Below are positions 266 to 13,449 of a stretch of 64,000 nucleotides of DNA, in pieces; the stretch's first letter is position 1, and each line of letters starts with the position of its first letter. The notes under the pieces were generated by a model. That model had not been told where the DNA came from, did no database searches, and worked only from the letters and a program-made list of their open reading frames with translations. The position numbers and the translations under genes are program-made. This DNA is from Deltaproteobacteria bacterium (GTDB lineage Bacteria > Desulfobacterota > Desulfobacteria > Desulfobacterales > C00003060). The stretch is from positions 6,104 through 70,103 of the forward strand of contig JAFDKF010000001.1 in NCBI GenBank assembly GCA_019307135.1. Reading direction: 5' to 3'.

Positions 266-1546
266 TTAATACCCCTTATGGCACTGAATACACAACTCCT
301 TTTTCCGATCAAATCTCAACGAAAAGTCGTGACGGCTTCCCATCAGGTTGTGGCATGTGATACACGTAATCTCCGCTTTGGATCTCGGATCAATAGCGCC
401 TTTTCCTATAGGATGGGTGAAAGAAGCATGTCTTTTGTGGCAATCATCACTAGTACAGGTAGTGATTTCATCCGCGCCGAAAAATAGCCTGAAGTTCGAG
501 CCGTGGGGACGATGACAGTCGCCGCATTTTCCTTCTTTAACCGACGGGTGTTTGTGCTTATACTTTTTGTCTCTTAAAAGGTCTGCTGTATCCTCATGAC
601 AGGTGGCGCATGTTTTTGCCTCTTTTGCCTTTATCATGTGGGCTTCGTCTGAGCTATGCGGGCTATGGCAATTTGTGCAAAAAACGCCTGGCCCCACATG
701 GGTGTTGACCTTTCTGAAGTCCTCCTTAATCGACTGGTGGCAGGCAGTACAGACCGACATCCCTTCGGCTTTCACGCCCAAGGGATCTCTTGACTGGGCC
801 GAATTATGACATTGAGTACATTTCTTCCGGGCAAATGGCTTATGCGAACTTTCCTTGATCAAATTCCTCTGGTTTGACGCGTGGGGATTATGGCAGGACG
901 TGCACTTCGCATCCTGGACAGGATAATAACTGTGCGATTTTTTCGCCTCTTTACTTCTAATTCTTTTTGAATGGCAAGAAACACATGCTTGTGTAACGTT
1001 CCTCTTCAGCATGGCTTCATGATCAGACGTGTGGGGGCTGTGGCAGGTCAAGCAGTCACCTTTCTTCACGGGCTTATGCTTGTGTTTCTTTGAAATGATC
1101 TCTTTCCTGGCGTGGCAGCTAAAACAGAGTTCCCCCCTTTCGGCGATTAATAGTTTCCGGTTCTTAGATGAATGAGCGTTGTGGCATTTCAGACACGCCC
1201 CTTCCTCAAATGGGGAGTGACCGTACTTTTTGTCAAAAGCCCCCTTCTTGCCTTTGTGACAGCTTTTGCACAGTTTGCCAATATGCTCTTTGACCAGGTG
1301 TTGGTAATTTGAGGTGTGAGGATTGTGGCAGGTTGAACATTCAAGTTTCTTAAAAGGCGCATGGGCACCCCTGGAGGCGATTTCCCGTTCTAAATCAGTA
1401 TGGCACTTCAGGCATTTTTTTAGGCTGACCCGCGTACTTTCGGCATATGTTTGATCCGCCGCCAGCAGAGCGCTTATGGAGACACAAATAAATATAAAAA
1501 AGGCCCAATAAATCTTTTTCGAAATCACAACTATAGTCTTTTGCAT
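266..1546 (-). CDS. Multiheme c-type cytochrome, 16 heme-binding motifs, secreted
   Basis: ORF-track ORF 266..1579. I place the start at ATG 1546 (MQKTIVVISKKIYWAFFIFICVSISALLAA, a signal-peptide-like N-terminus), which removes the overlap with the upstream gene. I counted 15 CxxCH motifs plus one CxxxxCH (CTSDDCH) in the translation. Confidence 0.9.
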   Translation of the reverse strand: MQKTIVVISKKIYWAFFIFICVSISALLAADQTYAESTRVSLKKCLKCHTDLEREIASRGAHAPFKKLECSTCHNPHTSNYQHLVKEHIGKLCKSCHKGKKGAFDKKYGHSPFEEGACLKCHNAHSSKNRKLLIAERGELCFSCHARKEIISKKHKHKPVKKGDCLTCHSPHTSDHEAMLKRNVTQACVSCHSKRIRSKEAKKSHSYYPVQDAKCTSCHNPHASNQRNLIKESSHKPFARKKCTQCHNSAQSRDPLGVKAEGMSVCTACHQSIKEDFRKVNTHVGPGVFCTNCHSPHSSDEAHMIKAKEAKTCATCHEDTADLLRDKKYKHKHPSVKEGKCGDCHRPHGSNFRLFFGADEITTCTSDDCHKRHASFTHPIGKGAIDPRSKAEITCITCHNLMGSRHDFSLRFDRKKELCIQCHKGY

Positions 1547-1575
1547 CTTATATCCAAATGACCACCAATGACCGA

Positions 1576-3525
1576 TCACTCATGACACGCTGTGCAGTCC
1601 CCGTCGGCAAACGGGCGATGCAAGATCTTGTGCAACAAGCCCTTGTTTTCCGAGGTGTGTGATTCATGACAACCGATACAATCAGAGTCCGATATCGTGA
1701 TTCTACTGTGGGAATTCGCCATAGCTGAAGCTTCGAGATTGTGACAAGTTTCGCACAACCTGGCCCTTTCAGCCGTAAGCAGCCCTTGGATATTTGTATA
1801 GTGGGGCCCATGGCATTTCAGACAGGCCCCTTCCTTTGCAGGACTATGCTTATGTTTATCTTTTTCAATATGAACCCTTAGGTCTGTATGACAGGACAGG
1901 CAAAGGCCCCCCAGGGGTCGGTTCAATTGCCCCTTTATCCTGCTCCCATGGGGATTATGACAGACAGTGCATTCTCCTTGTTCAAGCGGGGCGTGGTTGT
2001 ATTTATTCGTTTTAGAAGCGGCTTGAATCCTGGCATGACACCGGTAACAATTCTCTTCTCCCCTTTCGATCAGTTGAAAGTCATTGTCACTGGCGTGTTC
2101 GTTGTGGCATCTTAGGCACTCACCTTTTGCAAAAGAGGGATGGATAGTTCCACCCTTGACCTCATCCAGCATCCCTTGATGGCAGTTAAAGCAGAGTTTC
2201 TTTTTTGCTTGAATCAACCGTTTCCCCCTGTCATTCGAATGGGGACTGTGGCAAACGACACACCTTCCGATCCTTATTGGGGTGTGGACATTTACCCGAT
2301 CAAAGAGCATTCGCTCCTTCTGGTGGCAGGTGTAACACTGCTCGATTTCAACCAGCTGAAGTTCAAATTTGTTGTCCGATGCATGGGGGTTATGGCAGAC
2401 AACACAGTTTCCTTTCTTAATAGGCTCGTGAATATTTGAACGGGTAAAATCATCTTTCCTGTGACACCTGAAGCATAACGTTTTGCCAGAGTCTTTCAGT
2501 TCATATTCGTTCTTTGATGCATGGGGATTATGGCAGGCAGTACAATTGTTCTCTATTATCGGCTTGTGCACATGCCTCTTCTTGAACGATTCCTCTGTCT
2601 CTTTATGGCACGAATAGCAGAGCTTTCCATCAGGCAGAAGGGTTACATATTTGTTGTCCGTGGCATGGGGGCTGTGGCATGACAGGCAGTTGCCTTCTTT
2701 GACGGGGGCATGGACATGGGCCTTTGTAAAAGCCGTCTGGTTTTCCGTGTGGCACCCGTAGCAGAGCTTTGCCCCTTTTTCTTCAACCTTCAAGGGCTCG
2801 GCTGATCCCGGATGGTGGTGGCAGGCGCTGCACTCGTTTTTGTCAAGCGGCATATGAATGAATTCGTGCAGCAATTTGGGATTGGAAGATGAATGTGACG
2901 TATGACACGATACGCAGCGGCTCTCTCCGACCTTATAGCCCGCGTGGCCTGTGATAAACGTAGATTTCTGAAAATCATGACACTTTGCGCATACATTGTT
3001 TTTTGTGTCAAACAGGCATTGCTCATAATCAGAGGCATGGGCATCATGGCAAACCAAACATCCCTTCGTAGACAAAGGGGCATGTGCCTTTTTTCTGGTA
3101 TAAACATCCTCTTTATGGCAGATAAAACACAGCTCATCCCCCTTTCCTTTTAGCAGGTCTTTGTTCATGGATGAATGGGGATTGTGGCAGTTGACACATT
3201 TTTCCTCTTTTACCGGTCCATGGACATGCTTTTTGTCAAGCATGGCTTTGCTATCCTTGTGACAGGTATAGCAAAGCTCCTTTTCGCTGACCCTTAAATA
3301 CACACCGCCGATCACCCCGTGAGGCCTGTGACACGATTCACACCCATCCTTGGCAACAGGGGAATGCACGACCTTTGCCGCTTTAAATTGTTTGGCCTCT
3401 TCCTGGTGACAGTCAATACACTTCTTTTTGACAAGCCGTCCGATCTTTTTCTGACAGGAAGTGGTGCCGATGAGCATGATGCCGACAAGCAACACGAAAT
3501 AACATAGCGGTTTTATTGGTCTCAT
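1576..3525 (-). CDS. Multiheme c-type cytochrome, 26 CxxCH motifs arranged as 13 tandem di-heme modules; possible lipoprotein
   Basis: ORF-track ORF 1576..3618. The likely start is ATG 3525 (MRPIKPLCYFVLLVGIMLIGTTSC; hydrophobic N-terminus, weak lipobox TTSC). I counted 26 CxxCH motifs. The recurring unit is LCxxCH..(about 15 aa)..HxP(V/I)xxGxCxxCHxPHxS. Confidence 0.9.
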   Translation of the reverse strand: MRPIKPLCYFVLLVGIMLIGTTSCQKKIGRLVKKKCIDCHQEEAKQFKAAKVVHSPVAKDGCESCHRPHGVIGGVYLRVSEKELCYTCHKDSKAMLDKKHVHGPVKEEKCVNCHNPHSSMNKDLLKGKGDELCFICHKEDVYTRKKAHAPLSTKGCLVCHDAHASDYEQCLFDTKNNVCAKCHDFQKSTFITGHAGYKVGESRCVSCHTSHSSSNPKLLHEFIHMPLDKNECSACHHHPGSAEPLKVEEKGAKLCYGCHTENQTAFTKAHVHAPVKEGNCLSCHSPHATDNKYVTLLPDGKLCYSCHKETEESFKKRHVHKPIIENNCTACHNPHASKNEYELKDSGKTLCFRCHRKDDFTRSNIHEPIKKGNCVVCHNPHASDNKFELQLVEIEQCYTCHQKERMLFDRVNVHTPIRIGRCVVCHSPHSNDRGKRLIQAKKKLCFNCHQGMLDEVKGGTIHPSFAKGECLRCHNEHASDNDFQLIERGEENCYRCHARIQAASKTNKYNHAPLEQGECTVCHNPHGSRIKGQLNRPLGGLCLSCHTDLRVHIEKDKHKHSPAKEGACLKCHGPHYTNIQGLLTAERARLCETCHNLEASAMANSHSRITISDSDCIGCHESHTSENKGLLHKILHRPFADGDCTACHE

Positions 3526-3592
3526 ATTTTGATTTGCAGCAGTGTGGCGGGAAATGCCCGCCGTACATTTGTTTAGTCGAGTGGAAAAATGG

Positions 3593-5011
3593 TCAATCGG
3601 TCCTGTACTTTTCTTCAATCCTTTTCAGGGCCTTTTTATTGATCTTTATGTTGGATTCTTTACGCAATTTTGCCAAATAATCGGAAAGCACGATGTTGAA
3701 TTTTTGCTGTCCGACAATTCCCTTTAATCTCCGGGCCACGCGGGAAAATTCCTCAGGCTTCCCCCCTCTTTTTCCCTTCAGTTTTATGATCTTGTATAGC
3801 CTGCCATCCGCAAAGACATCGCTTATCTGCCCGACCTCCAGCCGATTTAGCTCGTTTCTAATTCCAAGAGGAAACCCATCAGCGCTAACCCATACGCGCG
3901 CGCCCTTTGGTGTCCACCTTTCTGACACCTGGGCAGCCAGGTATTCAAAGTTGGCTCCCTCCTTTAATTCCTTCAGGGCCTTCTCAGCATCTTCCCGAGC
4001 CTGAAAGGTCATCTCTCTAAACCATACCTCATAACCCTTTCTGAAGTCGTCTATATTTTCTTCATAGTACTTTGTCAACTCTTTTTTTGCTGGAATGGCA
4101 AGGGGATAGATAATTTTTTCCTTAAATTCGTTAATAAGCAGACCCTCTTTACGCCTTGTAATAATGTCCATGAATGCCGGGTCCTTCGTGTAATTGCGCC
4201 TTAATGCCTCCTGCTCGACCAGCTCATAAGTGATCAGCCCATCCAACGACTGTTGCTTTAGCTCTTCGCGCATCTTTTCTTGCTCGCTATTAGTCTTTAA
4301 CCTGCTAAACATCCTGGCCCTTTTTTGAAATGCCCGTTTCATGTCGTGCACCATGTCATCAAGCGGGATTGGCTGGCCATTGACTCGTGCCGCGACTGAC
4401 TTTTTACCAGCATAATCCTTTTCAGGGTCGAGCAAATCAAACAGTTCTTTGTCAATCTGGATATCCGCTTGTTTTCTTAACATTGCAACAAAGTTTTTAG
4501 ACAACTCTTTCTCTTTTTCCTTTTTCAGTTTTTTCGTGATTCGCCTTTTCCTTTTCTCGAATTCCCCCTCTGGGGCAGACCCGTCTTTCTCGTAATGTTT
4601 TTTGAAATAGTCAAGTAGATCTTCCTCACCTATATCGATTTTGTCGAGCACCTCTTCTTTTCTCAATCTGATAACAGATTGATTTTTTATGGACGCCTGG
4701 AGCTTTTTTTCAAAATCAGGATGCCTGTCGAGTTCGACCCTGTACGCGTCCTGGATTATCAGAGCCTCGTCGATCATCTCTTCAAGAAGGTCCAATATCT
4801 TGATGCTGCCCGCCCCCCCTTCAGCTTGGATCAGGGGCTTATATCTGTGAATGGCCTTGATTCTGTCCTGAATCGCTGTTTCATCTATTGTTTCGCCATT
4901 TACTTCCGCAAGAACCATCGTGCGCTCAGAAGCACAATAAAGGGCATCATGATCTGCTGTGGCAAGCAAAAAGAATGCCATCAAGGCAAATACTGATAAT
5001 TTTCTCATCAT
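3593..5011 (-). CDS. Periplasmic SurA/PpiD-like chaperone with a degenerate parvulin-type PPIase domain
   Basis: Signal peptide MMRKLSVFALMAFFLLATA, a long helical and charged middle, and a C-terminal parvulin-like segment (GANFEYLAAQVSE...GQISDVF...YKIIKLKG). The family call is by eye only. Confidence 0.6.
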   Translation of the reverse strand: MMRKLSVFALMAFFLLATADHDALYCASERTMVLAEVNGETIDETAIQDRIKAIHRYKPLIQAEGGAGSIKILDLLEEMIDEALIIQDAYRVELDRHPDFEKKLQASIKNQSVIRLRKEEVLDKIDIGEEDLLDYFKKHYEKDGSAPEGEFEKRKRRITKKLKKEKEKELSKNFVAMLRKQADIQIDKELFDLLDPEKDYAGKKSVAARVNGQPIPLDDMVHDMKRAFQKRARMFSRLKTNSEQEKMREELKQQSLDGLITYELVEQEALRRNYTKDPAFMDIITRRKEGLLINEFKEKIIYPLAIPAKKELTKYYEENIDDFRKGYEVWFREMTFQAREDAEKALKELKEGANFEYLAAQVSERWTPKGARVWVSADGFPLGIRNELNRLEVGQISDVFADGRLYKIIKLKGKRGGKPEEFSRVARRLKGIVGQQKFNIVLSDYLAKLRKESNIKINKKALKRIEEKYRTD

Positions 5012-5208: not shown

Positions 5209-5802
5209 TCACGGCATAGTCTCGATCATTTCGCCGACAACCTTTTGGGTCAATGCTGCTACCGACCTTACCTTCCCAAAATCGAGAACTTTTATGTAAT
5301 CATCACCCGTTCTCCTGTGGTGGGCCATCCACAAGATCTTGCCGTTCCTGCCATCCACCATCCTGGATCTGATGGAAACCAACGGAACGACAGCTTTTTT
5401 TCTGTCATCCACACCTATGTATTCGTCTACCTCCCCCAAGACAACGGCATCTACCTCCAGTCTTTTGGCCATCAGTTTTATGGTTTGAAGATTGACGCCT
5501 GTCCTTACAACAATTCGCTCATTGACAAGAAAGGCTCTTACATTACCCGGAAATTCCACCTTGAACTCTCTCCTTTCAAACAGCCCCGCAATAAACGCCT
5601 CGGTGACAATGCTGCTCGCTTCACCCACCTGGGTGTTGTTGTGGAAAGAGAAAACCGCCACTTTCTTGATCTTTGATTTGTCAATACCGGTCCTTTGGTA
5701 ACTATCTGGGCCGGAAAGGGAGTAACATCCGGGGCAGGCAACTAAGAAGAGGCTGATTAGTGAGGAAAAAAAGCTGACCTTGCATAAGAATCGAAGCCTC
5801 AT
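5209..5802 (-). CDS. Lipoprotein with a CsgG/LpoB/DUF799-like alpha/beta domain (paralog 1 of 3)
   Basis: Lipobox LFLVAC. The motif IKKVAVFSFHNNT aligns with IKTVAIVPFENLT (7345..7902) and IKKIAVMPFGSL (5804..7324). The later segments LEVDAVVLGEVDEY and ILWMAHH are also shared. Confidence 0.65.
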   Translation of the reverse strand: MRLRFLCKVSFFSSLISLFLVACPGCYSLSGPDSYQRTGIDKSKIKKVAVFSFHNNTQVGEASSIVTEAFIAGLFERREFKVEFPGNVRAFLVNERIVVRTGVNLQTIKLMAKRLEVDAVVLGEVDEYIGVDDRKKAVVPLVSIRSRMVDGRNGKILWMAHHRRTGDDYIKVLDFGKVRSVAALTQKVVGEMIETMP

Positions 5803-5803
5803 A

Positions 5804-7324
5804 TCAAAAATCCTCGATCCACACCTCTTTTTTCTCAGACGGTTCTCCCTCGGATACCTCTGGTTCAGGTGGTTTTAGAAGTTCTTTTTCTCTTTCTAAC
5901 CTGTTTCCTGCAACGTCGCTAACTTCGAGTGAATAGGCCAAAAAGCCCTCTTTTTCCGGGTTTGGGCCTTCCTGAGCACGCTTTAACGCGCAACTTAGCT
6001 CGGTCGGCATGTCTCCTTTGCCATCAAATTTGCCCGTCTCATTGCCCTTTCTATCATAGATGATTAAGTCCCAGTCCCCTATTCTGCTATTATCTGTCGT
6101 TTTCAGCTCCAAAGTTATGCCCTTATCATCTTCGGCGGCAAGCACCAGATTTACTTCGGGCGGTGTCGTGTCAACCACTATGGTCTCTCTAGGTGAAACC
6201 GATCTGTTGCCAGCCTTATCTTCCAATATCAACTGGCAGAAATAAGTCCCATCTTTAACCCGCTTAAACCTATTATCCTTGCCCCGCCACATAAACCCCC
6301 CGGGCAACCGTCCAGTGCCCTCTTCCGATCTCACAATCGTTCCGGCTACATCGGCAATCTCAACCCTCCAGCCCTCGAGGACATCTGCCTTCAGGAGTTC
6401 CGGGAAAAACAGGATGTTATCCATTATACCATCATTATTGGGCGATATAAGCCTTTGCCCGAATGAAACGGAAACCTCGGGCGGGGTGTTGTCAACTCTT
6501 AGTTGAGCCAAATCATCCATCCTGAAAAGCCTGTTCCCCTGGTCAGTGGCGTATACCCTGAGGGAATATACGCCTTCGATACTCGGGGCAATGAAGGTTC
6601 CGGTGTACCATCGTGCGTCCTCGGTTTTAAGCTCGACCTCGGTGTCAAGGACAAATGCCTTAATGTCCGCGAGCCTTCCTATAATCTCCCTTACCTCAAT
6701 TGACACGTTGGTCCTCTGGCCACCTTTTAACACTTTGGGGAAGAAACTCGCTTGCGCAATCTCAAATGGTCTTGCCTGCTCATCGTGTACACCGGCCTCG
6801 GCGGGTAAGCCTTTCAGGAGATCGGTTACGGCAACTTCTACCAGCTTCTGGAGGGAATTTATCTTACCTATGCCAAGAAAGGTGGCAAAGTCCGCCCCGG
6901 TGTATGAGACGGAGTTTGCCCAGACAACAGCAGAATCAACACAATCTATCATCTGGGCGCTCACGGCGACCCGGGGATTTTCACCACCGGCAAGCATCCC
7001 CACAGAGCCGGTCATCAAGGCATCTGCGCCTAAGGCCGTACCCATTTCCCTGATAGTTGGCCGGTCTAAGAAGTCTGTCCTGCGGACTCTTTTTTCGACC
7101 AGGAACCCTTCCAATACATCCTGAGGGATGACGATGAATTTGTCGTTTATGAGACGATTTGTGATCAGATGGGTAAAATCAAACGATAGGTCATCAACCA
7201 TGAGGCTTCCAAAGGGCATGACCGCAATCTTCTTTATTTTGATTCCCGTTTTCGCCCCAAAGATCTCGCCTGATGAGCCGAGCAGGAAGATTAGAAAAAC
7301 CAGAATGAATAAACGCCTTTTCAC
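5804..7324 (-). CDS. Secreted protein: N-terminal CsgG/LpoB-like domain (paralog 2 of 3) followed by FlgD-Ig/SPNxDG-type Ig-like domains and an acidic tail
   Basis: Signal peptide MKRRLFILVFLIFLLGSSGEIFG. N-terminal domain shared with the two flanking lipoproteins. ISPNNDGIMDNILFF lies between VDNTPPEV and VDTTPPEV boundaries, as in FlgD-Ig-like domains. The stop is 1 nt from the next gene's start. Confidence 0.6.
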   Translation of the reverse strand: MKRRLFILVFLIFLLGSSGEIFGAKTGIKIKKIAVMPFGSLMVDDLSFDFTHLITNRLINDKFIVIPQDVLEGFLVEKRVRRTDFLDRPTIREMGTALGADALMTGSVGMLAGGENPRVAVSAQMIDCVDSAVVWANSVSYTGADFATFLGIGKINSLQKLVEVAVTDLLKGLPAEAGVHDEQARPFEIAQASFFPKVLKGGQRTNVSIEVREIIGRLADIKAFVLDTEVELKTEDARWYTGTFIAPSIEGVYSLRVYATDQGNRLFRMDDLAQLRVDNTPPEVSVSFGQRLISPNNDGIMDNILFFPELLKADVLEGWRVEIADVAGTIVRSEEGTGRLPGGFMWRGKDNRFKRVKDGTYFCQLILEDKAGNRSVSPRETIVVDTTPPEVNLVLAAEDDKGITLELKTTDNSRIGDWDLIIYDRKGNETGKFDGKGDMPTELSCALKRAQEGPNPEKEGFLAYSLEVSDVAGNRLEREKELLKPPEPEVSEGEPSEKKEVWIEDF

Positions 7325-7344
7325 GGAAACGACACCTCAATTCT

Positions 7345-7902
7345 CTATCCCCCAAACAGCGTGTCAAACATCTCGGCGACCAGCTCTTTTGCAAGATCGC
7401 TTGTGCTTTTCTTACTGATACCAAAGAGCCGGTCTAAGACCGTTGTCCCTTTTACACTGTGGGTCGCTTCCCATAGAATCTTATAAGATTTTGCATCTAT
7501 TAACTTTAGGGAGACAGAGACTTCCGGATACGAGCTTCCGCCTGTTCGTGAGACACCATACTCTTCAACCGAGCCCACGATGAAGGCCTGAACATTCAAG
7601 CGCTTTGCCCCCCTTTCTGCCACGCGCTTGCTGATTAAACCGTCGCCTTTGAAACCTTCCTCCCTCAGTACCTTGGCGACCTCTCCGAATTCAACAACGT
7701 CAAATATGCCCCGTCTTAAGACCTCTGCGGCCACAACATTCATCACCTTGCCTTCTGCCCCTTTCTCCTGGGTCAGATTTTCAAAAGGCACAATAGCCAC
7801 TGTCTTGATATATGTTAGGTCTGCTGTGGGGTGGATATAGCTGATAGGGCCACCACAGCCTGAAAAGAAGAGCAGGAAGAATATGCATAGCGCATAGCGC
7901 AT
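7345..7902 (-). CDS. Lipoprotein with a CsgG/LpoB/DUF799-like domain (paralog 3 of 3)
   Basis: ORF-track ORF 7345..7995. I place the start at ATG 7902 (MRYALCIFFLLFFSGCGG, lipobox FSGC). It is clearly alignable to 5209..5802 along its whole length. Confidence 0.65.
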   Translation of the reverse strand: MRYALCIFFLLFFSGCGGPISYIHPTADLTYIKTVAIVPFENLTQEKGAEGKVMNVVAAEVLRRGIFDVVEFGEVAKVLREEGFKGDGLISKRVAERGAKRLNVQAFIVGSVEEYGVSRTGGSSYPEVSVSLKLIDAKSYKILWEATHSVKGTTVLDRLFGISKKSTSDLAKELVAEMFDTLFGG

Positions 7903-7965
7903 GGGGTTAATAATTGGTTTCGTCTGCCCTCTGCTTCCTGCCTTATGCGCCATGCGCCATGCGCC
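7885..7965. repeat. Inverted heptamer arrays: (AGCGCAT)x2 facing (ATGCGCC)x3
   Basis: The left array (7889-7902) contains the ATG and first codons of the 7345..7902 lipoprotein gene. The right array (7945-7965) is its 6/7 complement. The two are about 42 nt apart, in the gap after the beta-barrel gene. Confidence 0.75.
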
Positions 7966-8006
7966 GTGTGCTTTGCGTGCGTTCAATTCGATCATTGCTT
8001 TACCAT

Positions 8007-10145
8007 CTAAAACCTTGCTGAAAGGTTTGCGGTTATGGTTTGTGTTTCGGTTTCCGTATCGGCTTCCTCCCGGCTCCAGTCATATCCGAACCTGAGCGTG
8101 AACACCTGGCTTAAGTTCCACGAGAGGTCAGAGGAATAGGTTTTCTTGATTGTATCATTCCTGTCTATGGCATAGTCCATACTGAGCTGTACCTTTTTGG
8201 TCAACAACCAGTTCAGATTATAGTCCTGACGAGAGGTTTCATCGCCAGACTCTTCGTCCCGGTCAACGCCATATGATCCCCTGAAATAGAAATCGTGTGA
8301 GGGCCGCCAGTAAAGCGTGACTTCGGCATTGGAAGTTCGGCCTGTCGTATCACCGCTCGGCGCTTCTGTCTTTGACCAGTTTATATTATACTCTATTTCA
8401 GTTGTCAAGACGCTGGTAAGCTCAAGACGTAGGTTCGAGTGAATAGATTTCGTGGTTGACTCGGAATCAGTTGATAGATTTTCAGTGCGGGTAATATCTC
8501 CGTCTATGTCCAGATCTGCCCCCTCACGGAGCTTGGCCGCTATGTGCAGCAGGGCAGATGAGGTCTTTGATTGTGTCTCAGATTCTTCTTTCAATACCCA
8601 GTGGTTCAGGGAAAGGTCGGTATCAAGTGTGGTTAGCGGGGATGAAACAAAGTACAGCCGATACGTATCGGTCGATCTACGCGTTGTCTCTTCCTCAGAA
8701 TCCTCAGAATCCTTTTCTTCATATTCCAACCGCTTTTGATAGTAGGGCCGGACCTCAAGGTATTTGTGCACCTGAAACCCTTTTTCTACAAGGCCGCTTA
8801 AGTATTGGCGCGACTGCTTGGTTGTGGTCGAGTCGCCCTCGTTCTCGTTCTTCCGCCTGTCCTGGTTGAGATCATAAGTAAAAGAGAGCCAGTCAAAGGG
8901 TCTAAGCCCAAGATTGGCCTGGATGGTTTGTGTGGTCGTCTCTTCTTCGGTTGTGGTATAAGGGGCGTAGGTCGTAACGCTGTATGCTTCGATCTTTCTG
9001 GCTTGCAGGGGCTGGGGATCGCTTGCAGTGTTCACCACCTTAAAGTACCGTGCCGATGTCTTGGTAAAGGAGATCTCAAACCGCTCTTGGATCGTGTCAT
9101 AATCGAAGCTGGCATCAGCGGTTATCGGTGTCCATGTGCTGTTATCAGTACTTGAATACACAGCCCACGTAAAGTTGTTCTCGTCAAACGCAGGGTCAGG
9201 CGTGCTCGTATAAAGATAGATCAGTTCAACCTCAGTATCAGGATGCAGCTCCACCCCTATGTTCTGATCGTTCACTCCGCCAATGTTTATGTTTGCTGTG
9301 CCATCTCTCAGGGTGTCGTCAATACCAAGAGCCCCTGTCCCCGGCATGGGGTCAGGAGCATACAGTCCGTGAAGGACGGTCTCTTTTTCGGGCTTGCTGA
9401 CCTCCTCCCCCCTTGCCTTTGTTTCCGTCTCCCTCTCATTTATCGAATAGCTTCCGGATGAGGTGATCTTGTTGCTCCAGAAAGATTTCCTGAAATCGAT
9501 TCGCCCATCAAGGGTATTGGTCTCCTGGGTGCTATCTGCAACATAATCGTCTGAAATTTCGTTCGTGTAGTCGCCAAAAAAGTTCAAAAATCTATAGGCA
9601 TAGTCAGCGCTCCCGGAAAACCTCTTTGTCTCGGTGTTTGTCTCGTGAACTGGCAGGTGGTCATAATTCTTGTCTTGATCGTAGCGGAGCCGGAGCTTGG
9701 GATATTTTTCGAGTCTTGTGTATAAATTGTAATTCCAGGATTCGGTCGTGAACCGTTCTTCATCTGAGTCCGCGGTCAAGACGTCCAGGCCCTTTTCGTC
9801 TAAGCGATACCCGGCAGCGGCATCGAAATATTCGTTTGACACATTGAGCCTCATATCCGGATAGAGCCGTGTTTTCTTGTCGGTGGTTTTCTCGTCGTCT
9901 GTTTCAGTAACATCTTTAGTAACATTGACGCCAACATCAGCGTTAAAACTTACCTTTGATGTTATCTCTTTGGTAAGCCCGAGGTTGTACAACTGTGTAA
10001 GGCTCCAGGTGCTCGTCTTTTCATGATCCTTCTTTGTTTCGCTGGAGCGATAAGAAATGTCTGCCGAGGCGCGTATATCGTCTCCCGCGTAAGCCGCGCG
10101 GAAGCAAGCCAGGGTTAACAAGAAAACAGCAATCCAGCATCTCAT
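8007..10145 (-). CDS. Large outer-membrane beta-barrel protein with a central discoidin (F5/8 type C)-like domain
   Basis: Signal peptide MRCWIAVFLLTLACFRAAYA/GDD. Alternating Y/F/D/T/S-rich beta-strand composition throughout and a C-terminal ...ANLSARF (terminal Phe). The middle segment WAVYSSTDNSTWTPI...SARYFKVVNT resembles galactose-binding-like/discoidin domains. Confidence 0.7.
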   Translation of the reverse strand: MRCWIAVFLLTLACFRAAYAGDDIRASADISYRSSETKKDHEKTSTWSLTQLYNLGLTKEITSKVSFNADVGVNVTKDVTETDDEKTTDKKTRLYPDMRLNVSNEYFDAAAGYRLDEKGLDVLTADSDEERFTTESWNYNLYTRLEKYPKLRLRYDQDKNYDHLPVHETNTETKRFSGSADYAYRFLNFFGDYTNEISDDYVADSTQETNTLDGRIDFRKSFWSNKITSSGSYSINERETETKARGEEVSKPEKETVLHGLYAPDPMPGTGALGIDDTLRDGTANINIGGVNDQNIGVELHPDTEVELIYLYTSTPDPAFDENNFTWAVYSSTDNSTWTPITADASFDYDTIQERFEISFTKTSARYFKVVNTASDPQPLQARKIEAYSVTTYAPYTTTEEETTTQTIQANLGLRPFDWLSFTYDLNQDRRKNENEGDSTTTKQSRQYLSGLVEKGFQVHKYLEVRPYYQKRLEYEEKDSEDSEEETTRRSTDTYRLYFVSSPLTTLDTDLSLNHWVLKEESETQSKTSSALLHIAAKLREGADLDIDGDITRTENLSTDSESTTKSIHSNLRLELTSVLTTEIEYNINWSKTEAPSGDTTGRTSNAEVTLYWRPSHDFYFRGSYGVDRDEESGDETSRQDYNLNWLLTKKVQLSMDYAIDRNDTIKKTYSSDLSWNLSQVFTLRFGYDWSREEADTETETQTITANLSARF

Positions 10146-10718: not shown

Positions 10719-12149
10719 CTATTCTTCAATCAGGGCAATGCCGTGGGGGGTTTTTCCCACCTGAACCACTTTCTTCATGGTGTACGTTGGCAGGTCTATG
10801 ACAGACACGTCCTCAGACATCGAATTTATGACATAAAGTTTTCTTCTCAACTGGTCAATGGCCATCTCTGAAGGTAGGTCACCTGCCATCACATTTCTAT
10901 CCACCAAACCCATTCGTGGGTATACAAAAGAAATCTCGTTGCTGTTTGCATTGGACACGTAAATACGTTCTTGCAGGCCGGACAACATGCGGGTAGGCTT
11001 TTGCCCAACAGAAATCGTCTTTGTAGGCCTGTAGGGTGGTTGTAATGGGATCTCCATCACATAGATGTTGTTCGAAGCCGAATTGGCCACATACAGCCTA
11101 TCTTCGTGGATAAGCATTCCCGTGGGCTTCAGGCCAACAGTAACAGTCTTTTCCACAGATCGTTCGTAGTTATCTTCGTACATATCAATGACGGATATGG
11201 TATGCGATGCAGTGTTTGTCACATAGATCTTGCGCCTGTCTTGATCGACTACTATGCAGCAAGGGCGCTTGCCGACAGGTATCGTGCCGATGACCGTACG
11301 CGCAACAGTATCTATGACAGATACATTGTCCGAATCGGGGTTGGTTGCATAAAGCAAAAGGATTTGGCGAACTTCGGAGAGGGCAAGCTCAGCAGGGCTG
11401 TTACCAAAATTGCTGATTGTATTGATCACTCTGTTTATGGCCGTATCGATGACTGAAATTGTGTCTGAACCGGAATTGGCCACATAGACTCTGCGCCCAT
11501 CCGCCCTTGCCACAATTCCCACAGGTGCCCTGCCCACTGCAATACTTGCCACCACCATATCCTGTTCTCTGTCTATCACCGTAACGCAGTGAGAGTCGGT
11601 GTTTGTTACATAGATTAAGGTTTTCGTGATTTCCGCACCCTGTTTCCGAATAGTCAGCTCCGGCCTGAAGAGATATTTCTCGAAAACAGACTGCTCTGGA
11701 TCCCAGTCTGCAAATAGACACTGGCTTTCCCGGCCCAAAACAGAGAACTCGAAGTCCACAAAATGCTCTCCCCCGGGCTGGGGTACGGCTAAGGTAAAGC
11801 TTTTCTTGACCTTTTTCATCCTTGCCTCAGAAATAATCCACTTGACCCGTTTATACTTTCCGGCAGGCAGATAGAACTCGCGCAATTTGATCTGCCTTTC
11901 TGCAAGCTCAGCAGAATCAACGTGCTTATCCAGCGCCACATCGATCCACACTCCCTCCTTGTTCATAAAGCTCATGCCGGAGATAGAAAAGGAGATATCA
12001 AACGTAGGTTTCTTGGGACAGGAAAGATAAAAAAAGACCTGACCCTGGTCGGGAAACCGGGGGGCTTTCCGATCAGGCTCAAAAGCGCAGGAGATTATGC
12101 AGATTGGAGCCACCATTGCCGCGATGAAACGGATAATCATCTTTTGCAT
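10719..12149 (-). CDS. Lipoprotein with a seven-bladed YVTN-family beta-propeller
   Basis: I place the start at ATG 12149, preceded by AAGGTGG (ORF track 10719..12179). Lipobox IISC. Seven repeats of the type (I/L/V)YV(T/A/S/I)N....(V/I)SVID, e.g. IYVTNTDSHCVTVID, VYVANSGSDTISVID, IYVTNTASHTISVID. Confidence 0.85.
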   Translation of the reverse strand: MQKMIIRFIAAMVAPICIISCAFEPDRKAPRFPDQGQVFFYLSCPKKPTFDISFSISGMSFMNKEGVWIDVALDKHVDSAELAERQIKLREFYLPAGKYKRVKWIISEARMKKVKKSFTLAVPQPGGEHFVDFEFSVLGRESQCLFADWDPEQSVFEKYLFRPELTIRKQGAEITKTLIYVTNTDSHCVTVIDREQDMVVASIAVGRAPVGIVARADGRRVYVANSGSDTISVIDTAINRVINTISNFGNSPAELALSEVRQILLLYATNPDSDNVSVIDTVARTVIGTIPVGKRPCCIVVDQDRRKIYVTNTASHTISVIDMYEDNYERSVEKTVTVGLKPTGMLIHEDRLYVANSASNNIYVMEIPLQPPYRPTKTISVGQKPTRMLSGLQERIYVSNANSNEISFVYPRMGLVDRNVMAGDLPSEMAIDQLRRKLYVINSMSEDVSVIDLPTYTMKKVVQVGKTPHGIALIEE

Positions 12150-12207
12150 GATAACCACCTTCTTTAGGGTGTAAATCAAGATTGTTGGTTGTTGAGTTCA
12201 ATTGTAA

Positions 12208-12420: not shown

Positions 12421-13449
12421 TTACCGTATGTTCAACACCTGCACCCTATTGTTGAATGTATCTGCAACCAGAACGTTGCCCAGGGTGTCCACAGCTATAT
12501 CGGTAGGATACTGGAACCAGCCCCTTGCCCACCCCTTGCCGCCGAACTCGAACAAGAAGCGTCCGTCTTCCGACGAATAGGCACTCGCTGTGTGGCGCAT
12601 ATAGTCTATCACGTAAATCCTTTTGTTGCGGCTGTCCACGCCCATGCCACGGGGGCGGCTCAGTTTCCCGGAACCGCCTCCCTTTTGCCCAAACTTAAAG
12701 AGAAACTGCTCTTGGGGATCATACACATAGATGCGGCCCATGTCTTCGCTCAAAAGGTATATATGGCCCCGGTTGCCTATCTCCACGTCGCATATTGTAG
12801 CCTTTTCAACTGGCCCCTTGCCGAGTTTGTCAGTTGATGTCAAGAGATGGGAAAATCTTCCATCCTTATCCAAAACCACTGCCCCGCGATAGGCAGTGCC
12901 TGTCACGTAGAGATGACCTTTGTCGTTGATGGCAATATTGGTTGGGTTGAAATTGTCTGCACCTTCAAAACCGTCAAAGAAAATATCTTTCTTCCACCTT
13001 AGACAAGGATTCAAGACGGAAATCCTACCCTTTTTCTTTTTCCCGGTTGGCGATTGGGCAATAAACAGATATCCTTCAGGATCAACGGCCAGCCCCACAG
13101 GTACTTGAATCCCGTCCGATTTGCCAATAGAAAGAAGGGGATAGAAATCGTGGGTATAGACCAATATCCTGCTGTTCCCGGAATCGACCACATAGATCTC
13201 CTTCTTTACAGAATCAACGAACACCTTACAGGGGTACGACATAGGCACGCCTTCATAGCCCTCCCGGATAACCTGAAGACAAGTGATTTTCGAGGGCTCA
13301 AAGTCGTTCGTGCTGCGAACACCCTCCTGGGCGTGGAGTAAATGCATCCGCCCGGGTTGTGAGGTGATATCAAAAGGCACAGATAGTAAGGCGACAAGCC
13401 CTATGATGGGTAGGTATTGCCATTTTCGGGATTTGGGTCTTTCGGTCAT
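12421..13449 (-). CDS. Secreted NHL-repeat beta-propeller protein
   Basis: N-terminal hydrophobic segment YLPIIGLVALLSV. Repeats of the type IYVVDSGNSRILVY, IYVIDYMRHTASAY and VLVADTFNNRVQVL are typical of NHL blades. Confidence 0.8.
   Translation of the reverse strand: MTERPKSRKWQYLPIIGLVALLSVPFDITSQPGRMHLLHAQEGVRSTNDFEPSKITCLQVIREGYEGVPMSYPCKVFVDSVKKEIYVVDSGNSRILVYTHDFYPLLSIGKSDGIQVPVGLAVDPEGYLFIAQSPTGKKKKGRISVLNPCLRWKKDIFFDGFEGADNFNPTNIAINDKGHLYVTGTAYRGAVVLDKDGRFSHLLTSTDKLGKGPVEKATICDVEIGNRGHIYLLSEDMGRIYVYDPQEQFLFKFGQKGGGSGKLSRPRGMGVDSRNKRIYVIDYMRHTASAYSSEDGRFLFEFGGKGWARGWFQYPTDIAVDTLGNVLVADTFNNRVQVLNIR

Follow-up and report, generated by a model that had tools for sequence, protein, structure and literature searches.

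In the 'ring-on-barrel' design of polysaccharide export, 12 subunits of the lipoprotein PelC form a ring on a separate barrel, PelB (PDB 5T0Z, 5T10, 5T11 and 9H80), and nucleation of this ring on PelB requires the periplasmic TPR/stalk of the latter. Several gene clusters built around multihaem cytochromes have been described as well. For the OetABI 'DIET' conduit of syntrophic sulfate reducers, reported by Murali et al. (2023), the S5 Table gives the order hmlA, hmlB, PPIase, two hypothetical/'gliding motility C-terminal' proteins, DUF799 lipoprotein, omb (the label for the barrel position), beta-propeller and SH3 protein (PMC10553843), and Deng et al. (2018) reported the DFE_448-451 cluster of Desulfovibrio ferrophilus (PMC5815863). 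In Geobacter sulfurreducens, the accessible portions of the literature place the omcS-companion (osc) cluster at GSU2494-GSU2505 (Shen et al. 2025, Cell Chem Biol 32:239), identify GSU2495 as oscI and GSU2494 as oscJ, assign OscH to folding and, citing Shen et al., present OscE, OscF and OscG as a proposed joint secretion channel for OmcS (PMC13194489). GSU2495 has been described as a 26-haem protein of ~70 kDa. Oet/Osc ranks as the best candidate for the electrical link that methane-oxidising archaea form with sulfate-reducing partners, and the cluster has further been connected with steel corrosion by Desulfovibrio and with the production of OmcS nanowires by Geobacter.

The window analysed here, a stretch of 64,000 nucleotides, contains three adjacent genes that lie within the published OetABI cluster, the counterpart of the Geobacter osc cluster. 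In the accessible portions of the Oet (PMC10553843) and DFE_448-451 (PMC5815863) accounts these three genes are neither named nor discussed, the Oet model naming cytochromes and a barrel and the D. ferrophilus model naming cytochromes. The genes and the parts of their products are as follows, all on the minus strand.

5209 to 5802, minus strand: 197-aa lipoprotein, PelC-like domain of type A3, lipobox LVAC
5804 to 7324, minus strand: 506-aa secreted protein with a type A4 head, three Ig-like domains and a tail; leader of the signal peptidase I type, without lipobox
5807 to 5869, minus strand: disordered acidic/lysine-rich tail of the 506-aa protein, ending W-I-E-D-F (residues 488-506, pLDDT <50)
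5870 to 6772, minus strand: beta-sandwich domains of the 506-aa protein, three in tandem and Ig/FlgD-Ig/CHU_C-like, about residues 185-485 (DSSP of the AlphaFold2 model)
6800 to 7246, minus strand: PelC-like head of the 506-aa protein, about residues 27-175 (profile match to PelC 9h80_C; hhalign to A2 and A3)
7345 to 7902, minus strand: 185-aa lipoprotein, PelC-like domain of type A2, lipobox FFSGC, probable OscF counterpart

The original prediction had placed three tandem paralogs at 5209-7902, two with lipoboxes and the third with a plain signal peptide, Ig-like domains and an acidic tail, and its coordinates and each of these features proved correct. By BLASTP, the 197-aa protein is 32% identical to the 185-aa protein over 183 residues (E 1e-20) and 26% identical to the N-terminus of the 506-aa protein (E 7e-12), while the 185-aa protein and the same N-terminus share 24% identity (E 8e-5). 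When orthologue sets of the three types were compared profile to profile, probabilities were 99.6-99.9% with E-values of 1e-23 to 6e-35, the A4 profile aligning by hhalign to A2 at 99.6% and to A3 at 99.8%. The two small proteins and the N-terminal ~175 residues of the 506-aa protein are paralogs, with similarity far beyond chance. The gene for the 197-aa protein starts 1 nucleotide beyond the stop of the 506-aa gene, and an alternative ATG at 7995, upstream of the 185-aa start, would extend that product to 216 residues. Among the inspected locus orthologues of the 185-aa and 197-aa proteins, nearly all have a lipobox-like cysteine. With a looser motif scan, a lipobox was found in only 68 of the 115 homologues retrieved from the database for the 185-aa protein, a set in which many sequences are fragments or were called with other starts, and in none of the 80 homologues of the 506-aa protein, which are 27-83% identical.

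AlphaFold2 modelled the 185-aa protein with a pLDDT of 87, and Foldseek searches with this model returned PelC entries 5t0z, 5t11, 5t10 and 9h80 as the best matches (E 3.5e-11 to 4e-9; TM-score up to 0.82 on the target), PelC entries taking all of ranks 1-14 and the majority of the top 20 (E 3.5e-11 to 2e-8). Profile searches against the PDB gave the same placement for all three types: the A2 profile matched PelC 5t11 (E 5e-7), and the best matches of the A3 and A4 profiles were both PelC 9h80_C (E 7e-7, followed by GNA1162, and E 4e-4, respectively). PelC is the closest solved relative of all three paralogs, and GNA1162, FlgT, LpoB, TolB-N and CsgG come after it. In the Pfam scan, the 185-aa protein read from the 7995 start scored above the cut-off for LpoB (PF13036; 25.0 bits, cut-off 22.3) and exactly at the threshold for GNA1162-like (PF05643; 25.9 bits, cut-off 25.9); the 197-aa protein (14.8 bits in the PF05643/PF13036 scan) and the 506-aa protein (LpoB, 15.8 bits) fell below the cut-offs, and the PF05643 profile had no match in the named control genomes. 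In NCBI records, orthologues carry the names 'DUF799 family lipoprotein' or 'GNA1162 family protein'. Taken together, the HMM, profile and fold searches place the domain where the original prediction had looked, in the GNA1162/DUF799, LpoB, TolB_N and CsgG group, and not in an unrelated enzyme family. Within this group, a CsgG-like pore was rejected, given that the compact ~150-aa domain of the 185-aa model lacks the extra transmembrane beta-hairpins of the 36-strand CsgG pore, that its CsgG matches were weak (RMSD ~9-15 A), and the genomic context. An LpoB-like activator of penicillin-binding proteins and a true Pel exporter were likewise rejected on structure and context.

Beyond its PelC-like head, the 506-aa protein (AlphaFold2 pLDDT 78) is modelled with three beta-sandwich domains, for which Pfam gave weak matches to Big_13 (7.8e-5), CHU_C (1.5e-4) and FlgD_ig (1.9e-3). 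Foldseek with the full-length model retrieved only generic tandem Ig/FN3 arrays, such as SiiE, and nothing specific to a stalk. A locus search with the 506-aa alignment was swamped by the generic SPNxDG Ig-like motif and recovered only 2 true loci. The tail, PPEPEVSEGEPSEKKEVWIEDF, is acidic, and 55 of 80 homologues of the protein end in W-x-[ED]-[DE]-F. In five truncated relatives, reading of the DNA located this ending in the -1 frame.

The surroundings of the three genes, again all on the minus strand, are those of an Oet/Osc cluster.

266 to 1579, minus strand: multihaem cytochrome (OetA / hmlA; GSU2494 = OscJ type), with 15-16 CxxCH in orthologues and the same position in every locus
1576 to 3618, minus strand: 26-haem cytochrome (OetB / hmlB; GSU2495 = OscI type), with 26 CxxCH in all orthologues in related loci
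3593 to 5011, minus strand: SurA-like PPIase (probable OscH), directly downstream of the trio (Rotamase_2 2.8e-13, SurA_N_3 7e-11)
8007 to 10145, minus strand: 712-aa outer-membrane beta-barrel (OetI / 'omb'; probable OscE), directly upstream of the trio (Pfam OMP_b-brl 5e-11)
10719 to 12179, minus strand: YVTN beta-propeller lipoprotein (probable OscD), upstream of the barrel (TIGR02276 4e-53)
12421 to 13449, minus strand: NHL-repeat beta-propeller at the head of the cluster, recurring in related loci (Pfam NHL 1e-18)

The order of barrel, PelC-like lipoproteins, PPIase, 26-haem cytochrome, 16-haem cytochrome and propellers is shared by the window, the related loci and the S5 Table of PMC10553843, and the position of the YVTN propeller is kept in most related loci. 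No OmcS-like gene was found in the cluster of the window; an OmcS-like query returned a single candidate multihaem cytochrome on another contig, with a weak match (E 7.6e-5).

Co-conservation of the three genes, on which the original prediction depended, is strict and extends to the barrel in both related and distant genomes. In 31 of 31 complete loci, from many families of Desulfobacterota, the barrel is followed by A2, A4 and A3 in the same order, which holds down to ~25% identity, and in all of these loci as in the window the trio stands between the barrel and the genes for the PPIase and the 26- and 16-haem cytochromes. Across a sample of 401 genomes of the phylum the barrel is present in 48, and 43 of the 47 other barrel-positive genomes have a PelC-like domain match, which usually adjoins the barrel in the places compared. 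The same trio occurs in a SEEP-SRB1a genome from PMC10553843, and D. ferrophilus has a protein 66% identical to the 185-aa lipoprotein. A maximum-likelihood tree resolved one clade per type (support of 99/99 for A4, 91/93 for A3 and 75/47 for A2) with sub-clades that run parallel, indicating an ancient triplication that has been kept as a unit. Moreover, nine loci encode A4 and A3 as a single fused lipoprotein that lacks Ig domains, a fusion that provides Rosetta-stone support for direct 1:1 contact in a hetero-oligomer.

Based on this homology to PelC, together with the fusions, co-divergence and synteny, the best reading is that the three proteins form a mixed, PelC-like hetero-oligomeric collar or ring under the barrel, to which we assign a probability of roughly 55%. 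With the 12-subunit PelC ring on PelB as the template, A2, A4 and A3 would be non-redundant and would co-assemble, probably in equal numbers, where the 712-aa barrel faces the periplasm. The lipoproteins A2 (185 aa) and A3 (197 aa) would fix the collar to the outer membrane by its inner leaflet, and the unlipidated A4 would be held by neighbouring subunits and extend a stalk of ~10 nm, made of its three Ig-like domains, into the periplasm. The W-x-E-D-F peptide at the tip of this stalk could dock a partner, for which the SurA-like PPIase, a beta-propeller and the cell wall are candidates. Built into the Oet/Osc outer-membrane machine as a structural component, the collar may direct or retain a multihaem cytochrome where the barrel opens, and through the barrel either electrons would pass along an inserted haem wire (the Oet model) or cytochrome subunits would pass for nanowires (the Osc model). 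More tentatively, at somewhat under even odds, Oet/Osc machines would possess a hetero-oligomeric PelC-like collar made of three obligatory types in fixed order and equal numbers, the WxEDF of the A4 Ig stalk would recruit a single partner, and the A9-A10 slippery run of a sub-clade would set the number of tailed subunits.

Several observations count against the collar. The fold does not by itself imply a ring: LpoB, which shares it, is a monomer, and the crystal entry of GNA1162, another such relative, has two chains. The pore-facing Asp of the PelC D-loop (Asp-119 in P. aeruginosa) is not kept in the 185-aa type, in which GVDGEP aligns with GGSSYPE, and the D-loop region differs again in the A4 and A3 types. 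HMM scans of the 712-aa barrel detected no TPR match and no PelB-like TPR stalk was identified; furthermore, the barrel by far exceeds the 16-stranded one of PelB in size, so that a 12-mer might not fit.

It is possible, although unlikely, that the proteins are stable components of the machine without closing into a ring, and that each works independently, like LpoB or the TolB N-domain, as an outer-membrane tether or adaptor for a different partner close to the barrel, such as the 26-haem cytochrome, the 16-haem cytochrome, a beta-propeller or peptidoglycan. The fold is common to the non-ring adaptors LpoB, TolB-N and GNA1162, several candidate partners are encoded in the cluster, and the conserved motifs differ from paralog to paralog, each having its own set. 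Also in favour of this reading, in one lineage the A3 orthologue bears an OmpA peptidoglycan-binding domain, and in others long N-terminal extensions are added; for the collar, the OmpA domain fits a fixed structural role. However, the best match for all three types is PelC rather than LpoB or TolB, the nine fusions imply that at least A4 and A3 lie side by side, and A4, being unlipidated, must be held at the membrane by something.

A role as transient assembly factors, which would work with the SurA-like PPIase to fold the barrel or to thread or export cytochromes and then leave, appears improbable. It is suggested by the PPIase itself, a dedicated enzyme that adjoins the trio at the same position in every locus, and by the assignment, in the accessible portion of PMC13194489, of OscH to folding and OscE/F/G to secretion in Geobacter, but lipid anchors, the OmpA fusion and the consistent conservation of all three types would be more usual for structural subunits than for chaperones, and HMM scans matched none of the three proteins to a chaperone-like family. 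Finally, a function unrelated to cytochromes, in polysaccharide export as for PelC or peptidoglycan-synthase activation as for LpoB, is very improbable and close to refuted by synteny: despite the homology to both proteins and one database record that calls a homologue PelC, no pel or penicillin-binding protein genes adjoin the trio, the same barrel, PPIase and cytochromes stand beside it in 31 of 31 complete loci from many families, and the Oet cluster tables include these genes (PMC10553843).

The collar, if real, would mean that the ring-on-barrel exporter design has been re-used for multihaem cytochromes, as an unusual hetero-oligomeric member of the PelC/GNA1162 group serving a protein or electron conduit instead of a polysaccharide, and it would supply a structural element missing from the Oet and D. 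ferrophilus porin-cytochrome models as given in the accessible portions of those accounts. Three obligatory PelC-like types would alter how this machine is drawn, purified and modelled, and would provide concrete targets for mutation. Earlier publications already describe the cluster and propose a channel role for OscE/F/G, and the ring is at this stage a proposal, which limits the value of these results; the architecture is less novel than the original prediction supposed. Among the papers listed in literature searches, none combined multihaem cytochromes or extracellular electron transfer with PelC, DUF799 or GNA1162, the single seeming match being 'Pelco'.

Compared with PelC, the trio shares the same alpha/beta fold in the 185-aa model, profile homology in all three paralogs, the N-terminal lipid anchor in the 185-aa and 197-aa proteins, which the 506-aa protein lacks, and a position beside a gene for a separate outer-membrane barrel. 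In contrast to the PelC homo-oligomer, three distinct paralogs are present here, one of them unlipidated and carrying Ig-like domains, and unlike the pel operon, where PelB combines TPRs with a 16-strand barrel, the neighbours are a far larger barrel, a PPIase, beta-propellers and multihaem cytochromes. The likely cargo is also different, a multihaem cytochrome or electrons as opposed to the cationic polysaccharide of the PelC system. GNA1162/DUF799 of Neisseria (PDB 4HRV), LpoB, the TolB N-domain, FlgT and CsgG belong to the same fold superfamily, but they score below PelC and have other genomic contexts and partners. The Geobacter osc cluster shares the gene order of propeller, barrel, PelC-like lipoproteins, PPIase, 26-haem protein (GSU2495) and 16-haem protein (GSU2494). 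Gene order and numbering, sizes (OscD), the 'lipoprotein' annotation of GSU2497 and the fused-type loci suggest that OscF (GSU2498) corresponds to A2 and OscG (GSU2497) to A4 plus A3, so that clusters of the Geobacter type appear to encode one single-domain and one two-domain lipoprotein. The window differs from the Geobacter type in encoding A4 and A3 by separate genes, and in the three Ig-like domains and the WxEDF tail that A4 has acquired.

On its minus strand the window has a co-directional row of genes, running from an NHL propeller through a 437-aa multihaem cytochrome, in which the trio of 185-, 506- and 197-aa proteins stands together. The PelC-like domain types of the 185-aa protein, the head of the 506-aa protein and the 197-aa protein are termed A2, A4 and A3, respectively.

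Genes of the co-directional row
12421-13449, minus strand, NHL propeller
10719-12179, minus strand, YVTN propeller lipoprotein
8007-10145, minus strand, 712-aa barrel
7345-7902, minus strand, 185-aa protein (A2)
5804-7324, minus strand, 506-aa protein (A4 head)
5209-5802, minus strand, 197-aa protein (A3)
3593-5011, minus strand, SurA-like PPIase
1576-3618, minus strand, 680-aa multihaem cytochrome, orthologues with 26 CxxCH motifs
266-1579, minus strand, 437-aa multihaem cytochrome, orthologues with 15-16 CxxCH motifs

The sole sizeable spacer in the barrel-to-197-aa block is one of 104 nt (7903-8006), from the barrel stop to the 185-aa start, and an ATG at 7995, in frame with the 185-aa gene, would yield a 216-aa product.

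The original prediction held that the trio are tandem paralogs, two bearing lipoboxes and the third none. By BLASTP, the 197-aa protein matches the 185-aa protein (E 1e-20, 32% identity) and the N-terminus of the 506-aa protein (E 7e-12, 26%), which the 185-aa protein also matches (E 8e-5, 24%), and orthologue alignments of A2, A3 and A4 match one another with a probability of 99.6-99.9% in hhalign, so that, judged by sequence, the three are paralogs. The 185-aa and 197-aa proteins carry the lipoboxes FFSGC and LVAC, with the Cys shared by nearly all listed locus orthologues of both, and no lipobox was found in any of 80 homologues of the 506-aa protein. Given these matches and this lipobox pattern, the observation stands as written. 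One A3 sub-clade (loci L009, L071, L072, L078, L080, L081 and L083-L085) has one Cys immediately ahead of the first strand (C-[RH]-V-A-V-L-P-F) and another at the C-terminus (W...KG...C), a pairing that suggests a lineage-specific disulfide; the window 197-aa protein has neither.

Pfam matches to the trio were weak to borderline and fell to GNA1162-like, LpoB, TolB_N and CsgG, the very families originally proposed for checking. When a profile of 185-aa orthologues was compared with PDB sequences, PelC structures ranked first (5T11, E 5e-7) and GNA1162 next, and the best PDB match of both the A3 and A4 profiles was PelC (9H80 chain C; E 7e-7 and 4e-4, respectively). Foldseek matched the AlphaFold2 model of the 185-aa protein (pLDDT 87) to PelC of three species (E 3.5e-11 to 4e-9), followed by GNA1162, FlgT, CT253, LpoB, TolB and CsgG. 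On another contig of the same genome (G000:C27:6720-7160, locus L096), a 919-aa open frame contains a GNA1162-like match of 65 bits (E 1.3e-17), much stronger than those of the trio; this larger protein shares the domain but is distinct from them.

In its AlphaFold2 model, the 506-aa protein comprises a PelC-like head, three beta-sandwich domains, for which Foldseek returned only generic Ig/FN3 arrays, and a disordered tail. The C-terminal end is W-x-[ED]-[DE]-F in 55/80 homologues (5807-5821 in the window) and looks like a candidate docking peptide; a Lys/Glu/Pro-rich disordered linker precedes it here and in most orthologues. In a sub-clade of the family (25 of 80 cluster representatives), the protein is only about 455 aa long and its frame stops just past an A9-A10 run. 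In all five independent assemblies read (L008:11344, A10; L011:6657, A9; L101:1965, A10; L102:1956, A10; L103:1501, A10), the -1 frame carries on a conserved C-terminal piece (...YSLEV.D.AGNRL...VW[VI][ED]DF*) past the stop. The arrangement may reflect programmed -1 frameshifting or transcriptional slippage, which would give tailed and tail-less isoforms; the window gene (5804-7324) lacks the run. In some lineages, a cytochrome gene of about 380-400 aa with 5 CxxCH lies between the A4-type and A3-type genes (L008:11516-12721, L011:6828-8039, L074:11026-12156, L075:10938-12110, L076:8316-9464), and in the A-run sub-clade this gene begins before the -1 frame tail has ended.

Co-conservation of the trio, a check named in the original prediction, was borne out in the genomes sampled from the phylum. 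In a sample of 401 Desulfobacterota genomes, about 30 held full-length relatives of the 506-aa protein, with small paralogs beside them. The barrel occurs in 48 of the 401, the window's own included, and 43 of the other 47 barrel-positive genomes have a PelC-like domain match, which adjoins the barrel in most places compared. We read 32 related loci closely, and all 31 complete ones run barrel, A2, A4, A3, PPIase, 26-haem cytochrome, 15/16-haem cytochrome and NHL protein, an order conserved even as identity drops to about 25%. In a maximum-likelihood tree of 96 domains, each type forms one clade (A4 99/99, A3 91/93, A2 75/47) within which the same sub-clades repeat, and the three copies therefore trace to an ancient triplication and diverged together.

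Drawing on homology, gene fusions and synteny together with single-chain models, we consider it somewhat better than an even chance (roughly 0.55) that A2, A4 and A3 combine into a mixed PelC-like collar seated at the barrel's periplasmic rim. Such a collar would belong to the Oet/Osc machine as a structural part. Lipid anchors would hold A2 and A3, and neighbours would hold A4, which would project its Ig-like stalk so that the conserved terminal peptide docks another component. PelC itself is a lipoprotein that forms a twelve-membered ring on the periplasmic face of a separate 16-stranded PelB barrel. Nine loci (L079, L086-L092, L094; e.g., L087:8688-9809) encode A4 and A3 as a single fused lipoprotein, 348-486 aa long (1140 aa once) and without Ig-like domains, as classified with HMMs built without these loci; since domains separate elsewhere are joined here, this is classical evidence that A4 and A3 touch in a complex. 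The L091 protein has an extra N-terminal extension of ~795 aa, and L079 and L092 each have two A2 genes. An appreciably less probable reading is that the three act as separate tethers or adaptors with no closed ring. Several points speak against a ring: the relatives GNA1162 and LpoB are not rings, the pore-loop Asp of PelC is not conserved, the window barrel far exceeds PelB in size, and PelB uses a TPR stalk to nucleate its ring, none of which was found on the window barrel. We think it rather unlikely that the trio are transient assembly factors acting with the PPIase; in one lineage, a 372-aa A3 orthologue (L082:8376-9491, minus strand, genome G144) carries an OmpA peptidoglycan-binding domain (PF00691, E 3e-19) at its C-terminus, pointing to a fixed structural role, and the HotSeep-1 cluster has an 'OmpA' protein between two lipoproteins (S5 Table, PMC10553843). 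An unrelated Pel or LpoB function is highly improbable, being practically excluded by synteny.

The trio is not an orphan, but sits within a published cluster. The S5 Table of Murali et al. 2023 (PMC10553843) lists the same row for SEEP-SRB1a, HotSeep-1 and SEEP-SRB2, namely hmlA, hmlB, PPIase, two unnamed proteins, a DUF799 lipoprotein, omb and a beta-propeller, of which only the cytochromes and barrel are labeled, as OetA, OetB and OetI; one of our loci (L012) comes from a SEEP-SRB1a genome in that study. The 185-aa lipoprotein is 66% identical to a protein of Desulfovibrio ferrophilus, whose DFE_448-451 cytochrome cluster has been tied to electron uptake (PMC5815863). In Geobacter sulfurreducens, GSU2495 is a 26-haem cytochrome and GSU2497 is annotated as a lipoprotein. 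PMC13194489, which cites Shen et al. 2025, equates oscI, oscJ and oscC of the omcS-companion cluster with GSU2495, GSU2494 and GSU2501, and by gene numbering OscE would be the barrel, OscF the lipoprotein with one domain and OscG that with two. The same paper reports a proposed channel role for OscE/F/G, and with the cluster also published, the system is not new. In the literature searched, we found no mention of four points: that all three types are homologous to PelC, that three types are obligatory and keep a fixed order, that A4 and A3 are split in some loci and fused in others, and that the Ig-like stalk ends in WxEDF.

The barrel, the PPIase and the 26/16-haem pair always come with the trio; the presence of OmcS-like genes beside it varies. 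An OmcS-like query of this genome turned up a single candidate, which sits on another contig and matches weakly. Contig G000:C211 (L099:1423-2526) encodes a 367-aa multihaem cytochrome (N-terminus AKVTGVCSNCH, at least six CxxCH) similar to cytochromes encoded beside the cluster elsewhere; the window cluster lacks one. This pattern of constant and variable neighbours agrees with the Oet model, in which the barrel holds a haem wire, while Geobacter genetics, as cited in PMC13194489, favour secretion of OmcS, as in the Osc model, and both models of the cargo may be true.
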